DNA of 64,000 bases from the sequence record PV730299.1, one strand, 5' to 3'. Positions 54,532 to 63,090 of this stretch are shown here, one piece after another. A program made the position numbers and the translations under genes. This DNA comes from a phage. Each line of letters opens with the position of its first letter. Positions within the stretch are counted from its first letter, which is position 1. The notes below the pieces were generated by a model. That model ran no database searches, was not told where the DNA came from, and saw nothing but the letters and a program-made list of their open reading frames with translations.

Positions 54532-56733
54532 TTAGATTTTGATTTCTTTCTCTGTCAGTTCGGCAGTGACCTTGTACTTCACGCCATCCACTTCAACTTC
54601 CATGGTGGACTCTTCCAAGTCGAGGTCGGTGAACCAGCCATGGCCAGCAACGATACCATAAACCACTTTAGACAGCGTCTTGTTCAGGGCACGGACTTCG
54701 GTGATGGCCGCCTTGGCAGCAGCGTCGATCCAGTTTTCGATCAGATGTTTCTGTAAGGCTTCAGGCACGGCAGTGATCATAGGAGACTTCACGAATGCTT
54801 CGTACTCCTTCAGCGCATTGGCGATGAACAAGTCACCAGCATTGAGTTTCTTGTTCTCGGCAATCTTCTTCTGTACCGCTGCGATAGACGGTAGAGAAGA
54901 AGCGCCAGCGATCTTCACGTTCAGCTCACGGCTCATGTAGAAGTCGGTAGACTCTTTGGTCTCAGTCTTCGGTGAGAATCCGTAATCGCGGATGCCGTAG
55001 GAGGACAGGAACTCGGCCGCCTCAGCGCCGTACTGTACTGCCAGGCCTTTGGCGTTACCCTTACCAACCAGGGCGTCTCGATAGAACTTCAGCACCTTCT
55101 GCTTGCCTTTCAGGGCTTCCAGACGGACATTATCCGCAAAGAACTGAGCAGCACTGATGTTCTTGACCATGGCGCGGTTGACCAGTGGTACACTTTCCAG
55201 GTTCAGGACAAACACTTCTGGACCACCAAACACGTGGACACCCATTTCGATCAGCTTATGCACGACTTCGATATCAGCCTTGAACGGCAGAGTCTTCACG
55301 TTAATGATACCGTCTTTGACGATCGTGTAGTTGCGCCACTGGAAAGTATCCAGTTCTTCAGGCAGGCCGAACTTCTTCTGTGCGAATTCAGGCACAGCCA
55401 CAGTACCGTGTTGAATTGTACGCACACTGATGTTCGGGCGCTCGGAGTTATAGACCAAATCGCTGATTGGCACAACACCCAGGTCGTTGGTAGGTTCGAA
55501 CGTCGGGTTCCACTCTTCGTGCTCTGCCAGCTTGAGAGCCAGGGCTTTACGCTCTTCTTTGGACTGAGCATTCGCGATCTGTTCTGCCAGCTTGTCTTCG
55601 GTGTCGTCGGTTTTCTGCACAGTACCGCGCCCGATACTCTTATAGGAGAACATCGGATGCTTGGTAGCAACAGGCACACCAGCTTCAGCCAGGTACGTCA
55701 GCACATCAACAACGGTGGTCGCGTCTTCGGCCGGAACCAGGTCATAGTCAATACCGTCAACGCCGCGCAGCTGGTCGTCAACAATCGCCTGAACCAGATC
55801 GTTCTTGATGTTGGAGTAGTCCTGCTTGGTGAAGCAGTTGCTGTACTGTTTGATGAAGCGAACGTCACCCGTTTTCTTCAGTGCAGCCCACACCAGGTCC
55901 GCGTCCATGATGTGTACGCCGTAGAACGCCAGCACGTATGCCGCCTGGATATCCGTCAGACTATCCATCTGGTCGATCATGTTAGGGTTTACAACCCACA
56001 GCTTGGTGACGCTCTCAGGGATGCTCACATAGCCGACCGGGTGAGAGTCATCGTCCTGCACCGCCAGTACTGTTGCCACACCGTTTTCGACGTAGATGGC
56101 ATGGGTGTAGATGACTGGGACATCAACTTTCACCTTCGGCACTGATGACTTCAGCACGTTTTCCAGTTCGGTCTGGTATTCGGTCTGACCTTCGGCAAAC
56201 ACATGAGTCGCGCCAGAGCGCTCGGACATCAGAGCCAGCAGTTCGCGGTTACAGTGCCAGCCGTATTCGATGAAAGTAATGTTATCGAACACAGAAGGCA
56301 AGGTTTCGGCGACGGCCAGGATTTCGTTTGAGCGCCAGCAGTTGTCATAACCATCGGTCATGAATGCCAGGTTGTTGACGTAACCAGGTTTCTTCAGGTC
56401 ACGCGCAGTATCCATCGCCAGTTTCAACGGCTCAACGAAGCCAGTACATCCGGACGGTTGCAGGAAGCGATCGATCAGTTTGTTCAGCTCGCTCAGGTCA
56501 GACGCAGCACTAACCTGGCGGCCAGCGAACACAGTACCAAAGTCGCCTTTGGAGGAGAAATACAGAACGCTCACAGTGTCTTCCGGTTTCACCAGGGAAG
56601 GCAGGTTCTCCTTCAGATGCTTACGGACTTCAGGGAGCGCACGGTACATAGAGCCGGAAATGTCTACAACGATTACATGGTTGGACGGGGCAGCAGTCGC
56701 AACCGCATTCTTAAATTCTAATGATTCAATCAT
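54532..56733 (-). CDS. von Willebrand factor A (vWA) domain protein
   Basis: Start set at MIESLEF; MIDAS-like VIVVDISGSM near N-terminus followed by vWA-like fold; about 500-aa C-terminal region without recognised motifs. Confidence 0.6.
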   Translation of the reverse strand: MIESLEFKNAVATAAPSNHVIVVDISGSMYRALPEVRKHLKENLPSLVKPEDTVSVLYFSSKGDFGTVFAGRQVSAASDLSELNKLIDRFLQPSGCTGFVEPLKLAMDTARDLKKPGYVNNLAFMTDGYDNCWRSNEILAVAETLPSVFDNITFIEYGWHCNRELLALMSERSGATHVFAEGQTEYQTELENVLKSSVPKVKVDVPVIYTHAIYVENGVATVLAVQDDDSHPVGYVSIPESVTKLWVVNPNMIDQMDSLTDIQAAYVLAFYGVHIMDADLVWAALKKTGDVRFIKQYSNCFTKQDYSNIKNDLVQAIVDDQLRGVDGIDYDLVPAEDATTVVDVLTYLAEAGVPVATKHPMFSYKSIGRGTVQKTDDTEDKLAEQIANAQSKEERKALALKLAEHEEWNPTFEPTNDLGVVPISDLVYNSERPNISVRTIQHGTVAVPEFAQKKFGLPEELDTFQWRNYTIVKDGIINVKTLPFKADIEVVHKLIEMGVHVFGGPEVFVLNLESVPLVNRAMVKNISAAQFFADNVRLEALKGKQKVLKFYRDALVGKGNAKGLAVQYGAEAAEFLSSYGIRDYGFSPKTETKESTDFYMSRELNVKIAGASSLPSIAAVQKKIAENKKLNAGDLFIANALKEYEAFVKSPMITAVPEALQKHLIENWIDAAAKAAITEVRALNKTLSKVVYGIVAGHGWFTDLDLEESTMEVEVDGVKYKVTAELTEKEIKI

Positions 56734-56941
56734 TGTTCTCTTCGCCTTGTGCGTAAGGGTTAAGTTCAGACTCATCAGCGGCTTCGATGCGCGTCTTTAC
56801 AGAGTCCAGCATATTGTTGATAAATTCACGAGACTGCTCCAGCTGAGCCAAGAGCACATCCTTTGGAGCATAGTTCTGAATGCAAGCCGGAATACTTTCA
56901 GACGTCGCCTTCAGGTCGGTAAAACATTCTTTCAGTATCAT
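56726..56941 (-). CDS. hypothetical acidic protein
   Basis: 71-aa ORF overlapping vWA gene start by 8 nt. Confidence 0.35.
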   Translation of the reverse strand: MILKECFTDLKATSESIPACIQNYAPKDVLLAQLEQSREFINNMLDSVKTRIEAADESELNPYAQGEENND

Positions 56942-57009: not shown

Positions 57010-57036
57010 CCTCAAAACAGGGGAGTCTCCTCCCCT
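57010..57036 (-). terminator. rho-independent terminator downstream of NAMPT-family gene
   Basis: GGGGAG-tctc-CTCCCC followed on minus strand by TGTTTTGAG. Confidence 0.55.
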
Positions 57037-57043
57037 TCGGTTA

Positions 57044-58708
57044 TCAGATTTGTGAGGCCAGTTCTGTCACCAGAGGAGCGGCACGAACACGCGCATCTTC
57101 CAGTGTTTGAGTATTGAAGAACTCGCCATCACGATACACCAGCTGGTGCTGGTTGTCGGCGTCTTGCACCTGATCAAAGGTGATACCGTCAACCAACACT
57201 AGTTTACCCTGAGAGTCTTTAATGACTTTAAGGAAACCACGCGCAGACTTTTTAGTCCCGCCTTTATCGGTCTTCGGCTCTTTGAAGATCTCACGGAATT
57301 CGCCGTTCACTTTACCAGCCGTGGCTTTCACCGCCGTGCCAGTACTGTCACGGGTGTTCATCTGGTAGGTGTAGGAACCGATACCGAACACCACGTTGAT
57401 GGAAGCGAAGTTCCGGTCAGCCAGACGGCTAAAGATCTGGTCTTCACGCGACAGGGTGATAGAATCACCGTAGATCAGGCCGATGTGCTCATCCAACAGG
57501 AAGTGCCCAGTTTCAGTCTGGGTGCCACCAAAGATCTCCCACAGGCGCTGGATAGAGCCGACCGCTTCTGAACGGCTGATGATATTACGGTCATCTGCCA
57601 TCAGAGAGTTGATCGTGCCTTCGCCTGTAATCAGGTGGTAGGTGTTCGTCTCTTCGATGTGAATAACTTCTGTGTCGCTAGACACACCGCTAATGTTCAG
57701 CGTGGCACGGTCTTTGAACCCCTCGATGCGGTAGCCGCCAACAATGTGTACAGGGTCGCCCGAGTCGGGGCGGATCACGACTTTACCATTGCGCGCCATG
57801 ATAATGTCTTTCAGGCGAGGGAGATAGTCGTCGATGACCTGCCAGTAATCCCATGCATCAGACACGATGCTGACGGTGCCATCAGGATACACGTCCTGCA
57901 CCAGGCGGCGGAAGGTTTCGAATTCGCCATCCTTCGTGCCCATACACATCACGGCGTGTTCGGTAGCCGCAACAGAACCAGCAACGACATAATCTTCGTC
58001 GATGTCTGCGCCATAATACTCTTCTACGAAGTCTAGGGCAGGGTTGGTATCGGTGCCTTTGAAGAACACCAGATGACCGGAACCGGAAGACGCCGCGTCA
58101 TGCCACCCGCTCATACCACGGAAGGAGAAGTCGTGGCCTTGGTAGTCGATGAACCAATGGTCCGGCGACACGCCTGTAGCGAGGGCAGCTTTCACCATCA
58201 GTGCCTTGTAATGCAGAGCTATGGTGGCGTTCGTCATCGGCTTCCATATCTCAGAGCTGAACACGGTCTCCAGATAGTTGGTCAGCCAGTAGAACTCCGG
58301 CAGGGTATTGAACATCACATACACCGGAACGCCATACGGGCACATGGTGCCTTCAGGCAGCGCACGGACTTCGATAGGAAGGTAGCCGAGGTCATGCAGG
58401 GCTTCAATATGCTCTGTGCCGACGCGGCCTGGACCCAGGACTTTGTTCATGCGACGGGCATACTTCTTCAGCACCTTGGCCTTCGGGCACTGGAAGAATG
58501 CTTCGTCAAACAGTTCGTGGAACCAGGTCATGAAGCCCTGGATGCCCCAGACCACCACTCCGTTCTTCGGCAGGTGAGAGTTGAACAGTTTGTTAGAGCG
58601 CGGAGTTCCGTTGGAGAACACCAGCTCACTGCCTTCAGGGAACTGATAGATGTGCCCCGATTTGTAGAAGTCGATTGCATGGATTGGGTCTAAGTGGCGC
58701 ATGCTCAT
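57044..58708 (-). CDS. nicotinamide phosphoribosyltransferase-family protein (NadV/Namat-like)
   Basis: 554 aa; NAMPT-family pattern along full length; ATGA overlap with Prs-family gene; terminator downstream. Confidence 0.8.
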   Translation of the reverse strand: MSMRHLDPIHAIDFYKSGHIYQFPEGSELVFSNGTPRSNKLFNSHLPKNGVVVWGIQGFMTWFHELFDEAFFQCPKAKVLKKYARRMNKVLGPGRVGTEHIEALHDLGYLPIEVRALPEGTMCPYGVPVYVMFNTLPEFYWLTNYLETVFSSEIWKPMTNATIALHYKALMVKAALATGVSPDHWFIDYQGHDFSFRGMSGWHDAASSGSGHLVFFKGTDTNPALDFVEEYYGADIDEDYVVAGSVAATEHAVMCMGTKDGEFETFRRLVQDVYPDGTVSIVSDAWDYWQVIDDYLPRLKDIIMARNGKVVIRPDSGDPVHIVGGYRIEGFKDRATLNISGVSSDTEVIHIEETNTYHLITGEGTINSLMADDRNIISRSEAVGSIQRLWEIFGGTQTETGHFLLDEHIGLIYGDSITLSREDQIFSRLADRNFASINVVFGIGSYTYQMNTRDSTGTAVKATAGKVNGEFREIFKEPKTDKGGTKKSARGFLKVIKDSQGKLVLVDGITFDQVQDADNQHQLVYRDGEFFNTQTLEDARVRAAPLVTELASQI

Positions 58709-59559
58709 TTTACACGTCCTGTATTTTCAGTTTTGAAAGGAAGCCCGTCGGCGGTGATGTTCTCCCACCAGACAGTGTCGGCATACACAGCATCATAGAT
58801 CCCGTCGAAAACAGAGAGACCTTTGCTGAAGATGCCATGGGTAACGAAGAGTGTCATGTGCTTAGGCTTGTGCTTCTGAAGCTCTTTGCCTAACTCAACG
58901 AAAGTGCGCCCGCCGTCGCAGATATCATCAACCACAACCAGATAGCGGTCTTTGATCAGTTCAGGGTTCGTAATACTCACCCCAATGATCTCACCAGTCT
59001 TGGTGTCACGGTTCTTGTGACCGTAGACAATAGGAACACCGTCCAACGACAGGCTGAGGGCTTCGGTCTTCTTAGCCGCGCCGCCGTCAGGGGCCACCAA
59101 CACAGCGTTGTTCCCACGGATGAACCAACCCAGATACTGACGCACGATGTAATCTTGCGGGACAACATGGACGTTGTTGATCAGAGAAGACACAACATGG
59201 CTGTGAGGATCTTTGATCGCCACGCGGTCAAAGTTCATGCTATTGATGAACTCAGCCGCCCACTTCACAGACAGAGGCTCACCGAAGTCACAATGGCGGT
59301 CCTGGCGAGCATACGGGAAATAAGGGATATACGCATGGAATGTCGTCAGACGGTCCACGTTACCCAGACCACGAACGGCGTTTACCAGAAGCGCCAGCTC
59401 AATGAAGTCAGCCGATGATTTGATGTGAGCATCAATCACCACGTTCTGAACGTGGCCGATAGGGATACCAGACTTTTGAATCTTGATATGTTCCTCACCA
59501 CCTGGGAAGGTGAAGTGTTTGTAGAACACATCTTGGTCGTTCAATTTCAAACGAAACAT
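58705..59559 (-). CDS. ribose-phosphate pyrophosphokinase-family protein (Prs/Adps-like)
   Basis: 284 aa; phosphoribosyl-binding block VVVDDICDGGRTF and N-terminal Prs-like domain; GAGG RBS. Confidence 0.8.
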   Translation of the reverse strand: MFRLKLNDQDVFYKHFTFPGGEEHIKIQKSGIPIGHVQNVVIDAHIKSSADFIELALLVNAVRGLGNVDRLTTFHAYIPYFPYARQDRHCDFGEPLSVKWAAEFINSMNFDRVAIKDPHSHVVSSLINNVHVVPQDYIVRQYLGWFIRGNNAVLVAPDGGAAKKTEALSLSLDGVPIVYGHKNRDTKTGEIIGVSITNPELIKDRYLVVVDDICDGGRTFVELGKELQKHKPKHMTLFVTHGIFSKGLSVFDGIYDAVYADTVWWENITADGLPFKTENTGRVK

Positions 59560-59615
59560 AATGCAGCCTCATGGTGTATTGTACAGCCGTATTATACTGT
59601 GATGCACAAATTGAA

Positions 59616-59639
59616 ACGTCCAGCATTTACGCTGGACGT
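59616..59639 (-). terminator. hairpin terminator candidate
   Basis: 9-bp stem ACGTCCAGC/GCTGGACGT downstream of gene 59668..59901 and upstream of Prs/NAMPT pair. Confidence 0.45.
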
Positions 59640-59667
59640 TATTGATATTGAAAAGGTTTTGACAAAC

Positions 59668-60301: not shown

Positions 60302-60595
60302 TTATCCCCAGCTTATGCGCCAGCCAACTGTAAGCGTCGCTCCTGCTCCTCTCTCCGTTTTCCATAATGGGTCAAACGATCTATGGGCTTTTTGCTTCTC
60401 GGCACGGAGAGCGGCATTCGCCATCCTTCCCAGAGGCTGTCTGCCGTCGCCATGGGCATGGCAACCGACACGGGCATCACACGGGGTGCATATCCAGAAC
60501 TTCAGATTGCGGAGGTCAGGGCGATGAGGGTAGAGAACATCACCACCGACGAATTCGGCTGGGAGGCCACAGTAATCACATATAACATGTTTCAT
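60302..60595 (-). CDS. DUF3268-like zinc-ribbon protein
   Basis: Start at MKHVICDYCG; CxxC...CxxC with PLG and FDPLWK blocks typical of this phage zinc-ribbon family. Confidence 0.55.
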   Translation of the reverse strand: MKHVICDYCGLPAEFVGGDVLYPHRPDLRNLKFWICTPCDARVGCHAHGDGRQPLGRMANAALRAEKQKAHRSFDPLWKTERGAGATLTVGWRISWG

Positions 60596-60655
60596 ATTCT
60601 TTGTCCAAAAGAAACCCCGCACATGGCGGGGTTGCTCAGGCTGAGGTCAGACAGA

Positions 60656-61071: not shown

Positions 61072-63090
61072 TTAGAACACAACTTTCACAGTGCGGTTGA
61101 ACGAACCGCTCACCTTCACGAACACGTGGTTACGTTGGGTGGTAGAGAAGCCCAGACCGGACAGCTGCTCAGTGCTTGGCTGTACTTTAATCTTACCACC
61201 TAACATTTCAAAAACCTTGCGGTGTTTATCAAGTTCCGGCTTCAGATATTCGTTATAGAAACCACGGGTGCCGACAGGGTTAGCACAACCTTCCAGGATG
61301 AAGAACACGTGCTTGTTGCCCGTCTGCTCGCCGTCCCAATGGTTTGGTGAGTTCAGAACCAGCTGTACCTTCTGGAAGACGGAGGTCTTGATGCCCCAGA
61401 TTTCCTGAGAGCGAGCGTCGTCTTTCAGGGTAGAACTGATGTCAACCACCTGACCAGCGCGAACCTGAACCACAACAGCCAACGTGCGATCTTTGTTACC
61501 CAAGCCAGGGTGTGAGAAGCGCTTAGTCTGACCTTTGTATTCAACTTCGATTTCGAAACCAACGTCACAGGTTTCACGCTTGTTGAAGTTGGTGACATAG
61601 AACTCATAATTCCCGTCGCGCAGCTTGCTTTCATCGCTAAAGAAGATGTTCTCCACCGGACGGCGGTTTGGATCAATGCCGTCCATACCGTTCATGTCGA
61701 TGTCCAGAGTTGCGCCAGTTGACGAACGACGGTTGCGAAAATATACGTGGTTGTGAAGAGGATCGTTCATGCTCAGATCCAGGTCGTCGTTGTTATGCCA
61801 AGCCAGTGACACACGGAGGAAACTGTCGACATTACCACCTGCGGTCTTCACGCGCTCTTTGATGGAGTCGGCCACTTCGCCATTGTACGACCAGCTGAAG
61901 CCGTTGTTCCACTTGAACAGGTTAGGAGCGCCTGCGGTGGCCGGAGCGATCAGGGACATCAGGTTGCCAATGTGAGAGTTTTCGACCAGCACTTCCAGGG
62001 AATGCGCCTTTGGCAACACGTTTGTCAGGAAGTCGTCGATCGTGATCTCTTCAACCTTGTCCAGGGACTTGGTCGGAGTCTTCACTTCAGACGCCAGCTG
62101 AGCAAACGGGTCCATCTTCTTCTGAGCTGCCAGATCGGCGAACAGAACGTTGTTGATGGTCAGATCGTCATACACGGCATAACGGCGACCCAGTGAATCA
62201 GTCAGACCCAGCGCTTCGACTTCTTTCTGCGCGTTTTCAATCATCGACTTCGTGACCAGCGCGGTTGGGCGCTTGTAGTTCGTCGGAGCGACTTTGGCTT
62301 CAAAGGACTTCACGGCGGTTTCCAGATCCCGGCCTTCATTGAGGTCTACCAGCAGAGAGCCAATCACGGTATTACGAATGCCGTGAGGGGTATGACCGTT
62401 TGCACGGTAGCCAGTGCGCCAAGCCCACAGAGCGCGTTTCTCTTCTGCAGTTTGTTCGTACATGGTCTTGTTCACCACGAACGCCTGCACTGCCGCTTTG
62501 TGCTCTTCACCGCGATACAGAGAATTCTGGTCAATCAATTCCAGAACGATTTCAGCCGATTCCAGAGACAGTTCACGCAGGCCGCGCTCAAACACTTCAA
62601 TCGCCTGGCGGATTTCACCCTTCTTAGAAGCGATGGTATCTGCCCGCAGAACATAGCTGCCCAGCAGGTCGGTGTGGAAGTGGTTGTAGGTGCGGACAAT
62701 ACCATCTTTCATTTCGTGATTCGACTCAACACCAACTTTCTTGGTGTCGTTGAAGTACACGTCGACGATTGCGTGCTGCTTAACATACGCTGACAGCGCC
62801 GCAGCGACAACGTCGTATTCGTTACCCAGCTGAATGTTATCCCAGATAGAGATCACGTTCAGGTCGGCGTCGATGGTGACCACACCGCCGATGTTACGGA
62901 TGAATTGTTTACAGCAGGTGCAGTCGTGCTCGGTACGCTCACGGTAGAGCGGGTTGGTACCAGCAGGAAAAGAAGACAGATACAGATCCCACAGAGCATC
63001 TTTATCGATGTTGGTCATGAACAGACCAGTTGCTGACATGGCTAGCACGTTGTTGTTAACAGCTACTGCGAAGGGCTTAAATTCTGACAT
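61072..63090 (-). CDS. large hypothetical protein with N-terminal Cys motif
   Basis: 672 aa; HDCTCC motif near N-terminus; AGGAAGACTACACC-ATG initiation motif; no family recognised. Confidence 0.55.
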   Translation of the reverse strand: MSEFKPFAVAVNNNVLAMSATGLFMTNIDKDALWDLYLSSFPAGTNPLYRERTEHDCTCCKQFIRNIGGVVTIDADLNVISIWDNIQLGNEYDVVAAALSAYVKQHAIVDVYFNDTKKVGVESNHEMKDGIVRTYNHFHTDLLGSYVLRADTIASKKGEIRQAIEVFERGLRELSLESAEIVLELIDQNSLYRGEEHKAAVQAFVVNKTMYEQTAEEKRALWAWRTGYRANGHTPHGIRNTVIGSLLVDLNEGRDLETAVKSFEAKVAPTNYKRPTALVTKSMIENAQKEVEALGLTDSLGRRYAVYDDLTINNVLFADLAAQKKMDPFAQLASEVKTPTKSLDKVEEITIDDFLTNVLPKAHSLEVLVENSHIGNLMSLIAPATAGAPNLFKWNNGFSWSYNGEVADSIKERVKTAGGNVDSFLRVSLAWHNNDDLDLSMNDPLHNHVYFRNRRSSTGATLDIDMNGMDGIDPNRRPVENIFFSDESKLRDGNYEFYVTNFNKRETCDVGFEIEVEYKGQTKRFSHPGLGNKDRTLAVVVQVRAGQVVDISSTLKDDARSQEIWGIKTSVFQKVQLVLNSPNHWDGEQTGNKHVFFILEGCANPVGTRGFYNEYLKPELDKHRKVFEMLGGKIKVQPSTEQLSGLGFSTTQRNHVFVKVSGSFNRTVKVVF

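Follow-up and report, generated by a model that had tools for sequence, protein, structure and literature searches.

The question raised by this locus is whether two neighbouring genes of a phage, one Prs-like and one NAMPT-like, serve a classical nicotinamide salvage route or form the NAD+ reconstitution pathway 1 (NARP1), by which NAD+ would be regenerated after its cleavage by host defences. The pair is located in a stretch of phage DNA of 64,000 nucleotides (PV730299.1), referred to as the window, from an Agtrevirus-like member of the Ackermannviridae that shows 97.6% identity with the E. coli phages YX22 and LHE287. An initial annotation of this DNA had described the pair as equally compatible with NARP1 and with NadV and Prs, and the two readings as indistinguishable by sequence alone. 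This part does not hold: read against the characterised references and the structure paper of 2026 on Namat, the sequence strongly favours NARP1 over salvage by Prs and NadV. The pair is very probably a plain NARP1 operon, although we infer both enzyme activities and the anti-defence role from characterised homologues. Both the pathway and its distribution have already been published, as has the occurrence of these genes in the Ackermannviridae, and the locus contributes nothing new to the biology.

The first gene of the operon, adps (58705..59559, minus strand, as are all features described below), encodes a protein of 284 aa from the Prs family, a predicted ADPR-pyrophosphate synthetase. The second gene, namat (57044..58708), encodes a protein of 554 aa from the NAMPT family, a predicted nicotinamide ADPR-transferase. 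Both protein lengths and the overlap of 4 nt reported in the initial annotation agree exactly with the list of open reading frames, and both family assignments are supported by profile matches far above chance; the shared nucleotides of the adps stop and the namat start are ATGA (coding-strand junction ...GTA AAA TGA / ATG AGC...), and this overlap would couple the translation of the two genes. In the literature, NARP1 is defined by homologues of Adps and Namat that are at most 10 genes apart and usually in one operon, and the genes described here, being adjacent, in the same orientation and overlapping, fall within this definition. The order adps to namat is common to the window, Bas63, SPbetaL1, Kayvirus, Pakpunavirus and ICP1. 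In SPbetaL1 (Adps WIT26982, Namat WIT26983) the genes likewise overlap, whereas they are 45 nt apart in the E. coli phage Bas63/JohannRWettstein (genes 79-80), an enterobacterial myovirus like the window phage.

In the proposed mechanism, SIR2-, TIR- or SEFIR-based defences of the host would cleave NAD+ to ADP-ribose and nicotinamide. Adps, which has the Prs fold, would then use ATP to convert ADP-ribose to ADPR-PP, and Namat, which has the NAMPT fold, would exchange the pyrophosphate of ADPR-PP for nicotinamide and thereby yield NAD+ directly; the host enzymes that convert NMN to NAD+ would not be required for this regeneration. The published biochemistry describes ADPR-PP, and not PRPP, as the product of SPbetaL1 Adps, with ADPR pyrophosphorylation demonstrated only for the enzymes of SPbetaL1 and DyoEdafos. 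ADPR-PP is also the preferred donor of SPbetaL1 Namat, while Namat enzymes retain PRPP-dependent NMN synthesis in vitro. Loss of the operon sensitises Bas63 or FADO to SIR2-HerA or DSR2, and ICP1 NrsAB counters Nezha. An Ackermannviridae review of 2024 had already drawn the link to anti-defence; no report of an assayed enzyme or phage from the Ackermannviridae lineage was found in the literature. The module of the window is predicted to counter defences acting by NAD+ depletion, such as SIR2-HerA/Nezha, type I Thoeris, DSR1/2, SEFIR, Kongming and SPARSA, which would be relevant for host-range prediction and when phages of the Ackermannviridae are selected for use in therapy or biocontrol. By analogy, it should not counter aRES, whose product is ADPR-1''-phosphate.

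The Namat of the window matches Pfam PF04095 (E 3e-32). In the PDB search it reached 452 bits to 9W5X/9W5W, the SPbetaL1 Namat (452 bits by HMMER, 421 bits by BLAST), as opposed to 174 bits to mammalian NAMPT, and its pairwise identity is 43.7% with SPbetaL1 Namat, 43.6% with Bas63 Namat and 28.7% with the KVP40-like NadV. The initial annotation had proposed to align both proteins with characterised Adps and Namat versus Prs and NadV, and such alignments resulted in splits in neighbour-joining trees that contain few outgroups, with a bootstrap support of 97/100 for Adps and 100/100 for Namat. In the latter tree, rat NAMPT, the KVP40-like NadV, BcepSauron and avDM12 are placed on the opposite side. 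The catalytic core is completely conserved (D13, Y15, F194, R197, D220, H251, R313, D315 and T452-R453-D454) and identical to that of SPbetaL1 Namat, which served as the reference (D13, Y15, F189, R192, D215, the catalytic His, R306, D308 and T398-R399-D400).

Overall similarity is not fully diagnostic, as the NadV of Haemophilus ducreyi pNAD1 nests within the Namat-like group. This protein (PDB 9ke8/9keo, with 9ke8 matched to the plasmid gene by tblastn against plasmids) scores 351 bits to the Namat of the window and shares its catalytic core. Genetically, it is a working Nampt. However, its gene has no Adps partner on the 5.6-kb plasmid that carries it, and its clamp, GAQTYQRNTRD, carries Gln and Arg at positions 3 and 7.

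The selectivity clamp of Namat is built across the interface of the dimer. The selectivity-clamp helix (SCH) of the window Namat comprises residues 444-454, GSYTYQMNTRD (57347..57379), and shares its length and frame with that of SPbetaL1. It conforms to the signature published for Namat, GS-X-phi-X-phi-X-phi-TRD, in which position 3 is aromatic (F392 in SPbetaL1), as Ser445 is present and Tyr446 corresponds to F392, whereas every Nampt-type protein compared has GG[GA]LLQ at this site. An exception is position 7, where Met450 replaces Y396 of SPbetaL1, an aromatic residue that stacks on the adenine. According to the structure paper of 2026, this position is "most often aromatic", and single clamp mutants of Namat lost merely 1.3-1.7-fold of their activity. 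Met450 recurs in every one of the Ackermannviridae that was checked (Agtrevirus and Kuttervirus, together with a Klebsiella relative), and the Namat of the Pakpunavirus Adele has Cys at the same position. Met450 is a deviation from the Namat pattern and not an exclusion from it.

The selectivity-clamp loop (SCL), residues 35-50 (58559..58606; TPRSNKLFNSHLPKNG), agrees in length and pattern with that of Bas63 (TPRSDKWFNSPLAIDG), both being of the type TPRS[DN]K.FNS.... At its third position, for which R, K or Y has been published, it carries Lys40; the stacking residue is described at this or a neighbouring position. Lys40 is followed by Leu41, which is Trp in Bas63, and by Phe42. Compared with SPbetaL1, the loop is four residues longer and has Lys in place of Arg40. 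The SCH of Bas63 differs from that of the window in having Tyr at position 7. In addition, the window Namat contains an insertion of about 58 aa (residues ~326-383; 57560..57733) following RPDSGDPVHIVGGY, which is also found in the Namats of Bas63, outra and Adele and is missing from those of SPbetaL1, SA5 and ICP1 and from NAMPT. The insertion site is shared with Bas63, where the insertion is longer and the protein comprises 593 aa as opposed to 554 aa.

These features could also be taken to indicate that the Ackermannviridae Namat is a functionally distinct subtype, in which Met450, the Lys40-Leu41-Phe42 segment of the SCL and the insertion would shift or relax the selectivity for the donor. 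Such an enzyme might, for example, use both PRPP and ADPR-PP or accept modified ADPR derivatives, and the module might then counter a wider range of NAD+-degrading defences than canonical NARP1. We consider such a subtype unlikely.

The Prs-like protein, Adps, matches Pfam PF00156 and PF13793, and its AF2 model (pLDDT 92) has a Prs fold with TM values of 0.70-0.76. It remains below every curated NCBIfam cut-off for Prs, with 106.8 versus 113 for TIGR01251 and 48-93 bits versus cut-offs of 296-536 for the other models (e.g. 84 versus 297 for PRK01259). The best 120 matches of the homology search consisted exclusively of Adps-like proteins and contained no true Prs. In the tree, the Adps-like proteins, including those of the window, Bas63, SPbetaL1 and FADO, are separated in 97 of 100 bootstraps from canonical Prs, represented by four outgroup sequences (E. 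coli, human, M. smegmatis and S. solfataricus) for which the E. coli genome and PDB alignments served as sources. In pairwise comparison, Bas63 Adps reaches 36% identity and 131 bits, as opposed to 73 bits for E. coli Prs; the latter, however, scores no lower than FADO Adps (64 bits), which counts against the NARP1 reading. The identity with SPbetaL1 Adps is 32.5%.

At the level of motifs, the substrate loop of Adps, DDICDGGRTF (residues 211-220; 58900..58929), is identical in Bas63 and aligns with DDMxDTGGT[IL] in canonical Prs. D211, D212, C214, D215, G216, G217, T219 and F220 are invariant among 71 Adps-like sequences. SPbetaL1 has SSFGGTF where the window has CDGGRTF. The loop pattern DD[IL](CD|[ST]S)xGxTF is the sole motif that separates Adps from all four Prs compared. 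Two further motifs, [DE]PHS and K-x-R-D-x-x-TG-E, were considered as specific for Adps and dropped, as the Prs of Sulfolobus (4twb) contains EPH and KERDRTTGEV. Lys182 (59014..59016) occupies the alignment column of the catalytic Lys162 of SPbetaL1 Adps, whose exchange to alanine (K162A) abolished NARP1 activity; the same Lys is invariant in Prs and therefore does not discriminate between the two.

In classical salvage, a true PRPP synthetase and a true NadV would produce NMN, which the host would convert to NAD+ by NadR or by PncC/NadD. The names in all deposited records, nicotinamide phosphoribosyltransferase and ribose-phosphate pyrophosphokinase, correspond to this reading, and the Namat of the window passes the equivalog model NF006629 ("nicotinate phosphoribosyltransferase") with 469.7 bits versus a cut-off of 405 (E 9e-141). 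The NMN synthesis of Namat enzymes with PRPP, the position of H. ducreyi NadV in the same clade and the absence of the adenine-stacking aromatic residue at Met450 can be added; all three, like Leu41 behind the SCL lysine, also count against NARP1. However, a true PRPP synthetase is difficult to reconcile with a Prs-like protein that fails all Prs cut-offs and is split from canonical Prs, nor does SPbetaL1 Adps have Prs activity. The anti-defence effect of Bas63 is independent of pncC and nadR of the host. The clamp, intact at the key Tyr446, differs from that of H. ducreyi NadV, which has no adjacent Adps, and two phage queries found no NMNAT homologue in the 64-kb window, a weak test of low sensitivity. 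Taken together, salvage by Prs and NadV is very unlikely, and the deposited names appear outdated.

The NARP1 reading proposed in the initial annotation is in turn supported by the position of both proteins in a clade with enzymes tested by biochemistry and genetics, by SPbetaL1 Namat as the best structure match, by the clamp signature and by the failed Prs thresholds, as well as by near-identical orthologues within the published NARP1 tables. The orthologues of the pair in SKML-39 are 98.2% and 98.9% identical, and Osterman et al. list them in these tables as "Namat within 10 genes: Yes" and "Adps-associated".

Several variants of these systems have been described, with which the locus was compared. 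NARP1-AP (Adps-Adpp-Namat, Vibrio phage Gary) shares the core pair and is recognised by a Macro phosphatase (PF14519, PF01661 or PF20016) at most two genes from the operon. The Macro-domain Pfam models gave no match in the flanking open reading frames (E<=0.01 for one downstream neighbour, E<=10 for the others), and phmmer with the Macro protein of Adele found nothing across the window. The NARP1 of the mycobacteriophage DyoEdafos, which contains RyDEP, also shares the core pair; no match to the RyR domain (PF02026) was found in the flanking open reading frames. Searches of all six frames of the window likewise returned no homologue of Macro, NMNAT or phosphoesterase proteins. As no Macro (Adpp), RyR (RyDEP) or NMNAT gene lies nearby, the locus is assigned to plain NARP1. 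The NadV of NARP2/KVP40, which is paired with the NMN adenylyltransferase NatV, has the NAMPT fold and the substrate nicotinamide in common with the Namat of the window, but this type of NadV (D485) has GGGLLQ instead of the clamp. Shewanella phage 1/40 encodes a Nampt-like protein of 29% identity and was considered as a contrast in which a true Prs accompanies Nampt. It was rejected, since the splits place its two proteins with Adps and Namat, respectively; it therefore carries a NARP1-like trio, divergent in sequence, that includes a nucleotidyltransferase.

Among relatives, the genes are present in 8 of 14 Agtrevirus genomes and absent from the other six, and the Limestonevirus Ds20CZ shows a clean in-frame deletion of the module. 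The module is therefore dispensable, and its variable presence fits an accessory set of counter-defence genes. The same chemistry might have another purpose, the recycling of ADP-ribose and nicotinamide mainly for the NAD+ economy of a normal infection, as the operon has RNR, thymidylate synthase, dUTPase and ligase close by in a region devoted to replication and nucleotide metabolism, and the pair is conserved over several Ackermannviridae genera; this is very unlikely, given the gaps in its distribution and the observation that in Bas63 ADPR-PP appears only with a defence system and the deletion phenotype only on hosts carrying one.

The pair appears to be a transcription unit of its own, flanked by two conserved hairpins. 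A ribosome-binding site, GAGG (59567-59570), is located upstream of adps, and the 60 nt ahead of its ATG are nearly invariant in three genera. The weak TATAAT mentioned in the initial annotation for the region around 59590 is present as a putative -10 element at 59591-59596, with no recognisable -35 element and no call by the sigma-70 scanner; this hexamer and the GAGG are unchanged in the three genera. The conserved upstream sequence was also considered as a recurring promoter consensus of the phage and was rejected, as it occurs once in the window. In the consensus scan of the region, the number of promoter-like and terminator-like sites is at chance level. A 10-bp hairpin (59615..59640; -17.8 kcal/mol) separates the operon from the gene upstream and shows a compensatory change from T-A to C-G in relatives; it probably terminates transcription of that gene or has a regulatory role.

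At the other end, namat terminates with the double stop TGA TAA, followed by a terminator-like hairpin, AGGGGAG-GAGA-CUCCCCU (57013..57036), with a stem of 7 bp, a GAGA loop and a subsequent GUUUUG; the 44-nt stretch has a folding energy of -17.3 kcal/mol. The terminator that the initial annotation placed downstream corresponds to this hairpin with its short T-run, which is missing from the list of the consensus terminator scanner. In the relatives from Agtrevirus, Kuttervirus and Klebsiella, its stem is conserved and its loop is variable.

The 284-aa Prs-like gene (adps; 58705-59559, minus strand) and the 554-aa NAMPT-like gene (namat; 57044-58708, minus strand) were found in the ORF listing exactly as initially annotated, with a 4-nt overlap that reads ...GTA AAA TGA over ATG AGC on the coding strand, an ATGA junction typical of translational coupling. 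Their family membership was likewise borne out by Pfam, with PF00156 and PF13793 in the former and PF04095 (NAPRTase family, E 3e-32) in the latter. Two readings of such a pair have to be weighed, the older annotation as NadV and Prs salvage and NAD+ reconstitution pathway 1 (NARP1). The latter goes back to the 'Prs' and 'Nampt' operon of phage Bas63, which counters SIR2-HerA independently of host pncC or nadR, and to SPbetaL1, whose 'Prs' homologue converts ADPR and ATP to ADPR-pyrophosphate (ADPR-PP) without making PRPP and was named Adps, while its 'Nampt' homologue forms NAD+ from ADPR-PP and nicotinamide, prefers ADPR-PP over PRPP and was named Namat (Osterman et al.). The specificity of Namat has been placed in a two-element 'selectivity clamp', one element of which is a variable loop (SCL) with Arg40, and the SPbetaL1 structures are available as PDB 9W5X and 9W5W (Lan et al.).

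These two structures were the best PDB matches of the 554-aa protein with 452 bits, compared with 174 bits for mammalian NAMPT. In BLASTP it shares 43.7% identity with SPbetaL1 Namat, 43.6% with Bas63 Namat and 28.7% with NadV of a KVP40-like phage. A tblastn search against all phages gave two identity groups of about 40-47% and 25-29%, and every representative fetched from the first has a Prs-like gene upstream, adjacent or a few genes off. Neighbour joining with bootstraps splits the Nampt type (rat NAMPT, D485 NadV, BcepSauron and avDM12) from the Namat-like proteins in 100 of 100 replicates and puts the window protein on the Namat side, grouped with Bas63, outra and Adele. The alignment shows the catalytic core to be fully conserved (D13, Y15, F194, R197, D220, H251, R313, D315 and T452-R453-D454), and the helix motif of the clamp (SCH, residues 444-454), GSYTYQMNTRD, has the Namat form, whereas every Nampt-type protein aligned has GG[GA]LLQ there. 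The SCL (residues 35-50, TPRSNKLFNSHLPKNG) agrees in length and pattern with that of Bas63. The 554-aa protein is therefore assigned as a Namat. Three deviations do not argue against its function: SCH position 7 is Met450, kept in all Ackermannviridae checked, instead of Tyr in SPbetaL1 and Bas63 or Cys in the Pakpunavirus Adele; the SCL lysine is followed by Leu41, where Bas63 has Trp, and then by Phe42; and about 58 residues are inserted after RPDSGDPVHIVGGY (57560-57733, minus strand; residues ~326-383), an insertion that the Namats of Bas63, outra and Adele, phages of Gram-negative hosts, also have and that SPbetaL1, Kayvirus, ICP1 and NAMPT lack. Single clamp mutants of SPbetaL1 Namat lose only 1.3-1.7-fold of their activity (Lan et al.), and Bas63, with the insertion, works in vivo. 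With 469.7 bits, the window protein also exceeds the cut-off (405) of the NCBIfam equivalog NF006629 ('nicotinate phosphoribosyltransferase'), so Namat genes will go on being mislabelled by automatic annotation.

The 284-aa protein lies below every curated Prs threshold, closely for TIGR01251 (106.8 versus 113) and widely for the other Prs models (48-93 bits versus 296-536). Pairwise scores were 132 bits to ICP1 NrsA, 131 to Bas63 Adps, 95 to SPbetaL1 Adps, 73 to E. coli Prs and 64 to FADO Adps, and are indecisive on their own because the last value is below that for E. coli Prs. In the tree, the canonical Prs, represented by those of E. coli, human (PRPS2), M. smegmatis and S. solfataricus, are set apart from all Adps-like proteins, including the window protein and the three tested Adps, in 97 of 100 replicates. 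Lys182 occupies the place of catalytic Lys162 in SPbetaL1, a residue that is invariant in Prs too. The ribose-5-phosphate-binding loop of Prs, DDMxDTGGT[IL], is replaced by DDICDGGRTF in the window protein, and the pattern DD[IL](CD|[ST]S)xGxTF is common to all Adps aligned; in 71 relatives, D211, D212, C214, D215, G216, G217, T219 and F220 are invariant. An AlphaFold2 model (pLDDT 92.1, pTM 0.86) has the two-domain Prs fold with moderate similarity only to solved Prs structures (TM 0.70-0.76, 20-25% identity); the PDB search with this protein found no Adps structure. Taken by its sequence, the 284-aa protein is classed as an Adps.

Overall similarity to Namat is insufficient alone, since the classical bacterial NadV of Haemophilus ducreyi plasmid pNAD1 (NC_005329, 3876-4793; PDB 9ke8/9keo, 100% identity to 9ke8) reaches 351 bits with the window Namat and nests inside the phage Namat clade, beside the SPbetaL1 and Kayvirus (SA5) Namats, in 98 of 100 replicates. 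Its clamp, GAQTYQRNTRD, has Gln and Arg at positions 3 and 7 in place of the adenine-clamp aromatics, and the 5.6-kb pNAD1 is without an Adps, which suggests a plasmid-captured Namat reverted to or retained for PRPP use. The clamp motif and the adjacent Adps are thus the discriminating features, and the window has both. Clade membership, catalytic core, clamp motif and adjacent Adps all agree with the NARP1-like reading of the initial annotation, and the alignment against characterised enzymes that it proposed places the two proteins on the Adps and Namat sides. Its reservation that sequence alone does not distinguish NARP1 from NadV and Prs is not upheld, and the predicted assignment to NARP1 is right.

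Recent preprints describe extended forms, in which a Macro-domain ADPR-1''-phosphate phosphatase (Adpp) lets NARP1 overcome aRES or a RyR-domain glycosidase (RyDEP) is inserted in the operon. Neither a Macro nor a RyR domain was found by Pfam in five of the flanking ORFs and the upstream 672-aa protein (E <= 10) or in the downstream 747-aa neighbour (E <= 0.01), and phmmer with single Macro and NMNAT queries gave no match in any frame of the 64-kb window, so that the operon is classed as a plain two-gene NARP1. Both neighbours are conserved; the 747-aa protein (54532-56775, minus strand) has a VWA domain at its N-terminus (E 1e-6), the 672-aa protein (61072-63090, minus strand) has no Pfam match, and a DUF3268 zinc-finger protein is encoded at 60302-60622. 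Shewanella phage 1/40 (comparison locus L012, 3398-6554) has a three-gene cluster of a nucleotidyltransferase, an Adps-like and a divergent Namat-like protein with a one-residue SCH insertion (GSYANLQNNTRD); the cluster is perhaps a hybrid NAD+ pathway or an extended one. Three Adps-like proteins from the broad homology search (P0080, P0096 and P0120), 42-44% identical to the window Adps, are encoded on bacterial contigs of several megabases (Marinicellulosiphila, Motilimonas), in agreement with reported bacterial NARP1 homologues.

Regulatory elements around the operon are plausible. The terminator proposed downstream corresponds to a GC-rich hairpin of 7 bp with GUUUUG after it, past the double stop of namat (57013-57036, minus strand; -17.3 kcal/mol for a 44-nt stretch), and the weak TATAAT-containing region to a perfect TATAAT at 59591-59596 (minus strand), which is without a -35 element. 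A consensus scanner called neither a promoter nor a terminator at these places, and its site counts around the operon are at chance level. A 10-bp hairpin lies further 5' (59615-59640, minus strand). The stems of both hairpins are preserved in relatives with compensatory or loop changes, those at 59615-59640 being compensatory. Over the final 60 nt before the adps ATG, Agtrevirus, Kuttervirus and one Klebsiella relative hardly differ, and sequence farther 5' diverges; the upstream motif occurs once in the window. This leader of about 60 nt (within 59567-59640, minus strand) consists of the hairpin 3' arm, TTTCAATTTGTGC, TATAAT and a GAGG ribosome-binding site, with flanks that diverge.

The region matches 90 phage records, nearly all Ackermannviridae, with 97.6% identity to E. 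coli phages YX22 and LHE287, 97.1% to AV101 and 95% to Salmonella phage SKML-39, and following the AV101 annotation the window is a region of replication and nucleotide metabolism (ribonucleotide reductase, thymidylate synthase, dUTPase, UvsX, gp33, gp55). The operon is a known system that has been catalogued in this lineage before. For SKML-39, Shigella phage Ag3 and Klebsiella phage 0507-KN2-1, a Prs/Adps homologue is entered in Supplementary Table 1 (Osterman et al.) with the flag 'Namat within 10 genes: Yes', and in their Table 2 the Namat of SKML-39 appears as 'Adps-associated'. Between SKML-39 and the window, Adps is 98.2% and Namat 98.9% identical. The AV101 paper reports NAMPT and RPPK genes in 8 of 14 Agtrevirus genomes, and a 2024 Ackermannviridae review, citing Osterman et al., suggests that these genes serve to evade defences that deplete NAD+. 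In more recent GenBank entries, for instance that of Pseudomonas phage Adele, the products are already called 'ADP-ribose pyrophosphate synthetase' and 'nicotinamide ADP-ribosyltransferase'. A literature search found no experimental test of NARP1 for the Ackermannviridae lineage. Dickeya phage Ds20CZ (MN813051; comparison locus L018, 3998-4330) offers a ready-made knock-out, as its annotated 110-aa 'nicotinamide phosphoribosyltransferase' joins Adps residues 1-7 (MFRLKLN) to Namat from ~451 (NTRDSTG...), a natural in-frame deletion which shows that the module is dispensable. Shigella phage Ag3 (FJ373894_00125 in Osterman Table S1) apparently has Adps(1-222) joined to Namat(226-554) by fusion or deletion, which could be a real deletion or an old assembly error; PHROG 12872 (547 positions) is a model of this chimera, and the two window proteins therefore match it over different halves.
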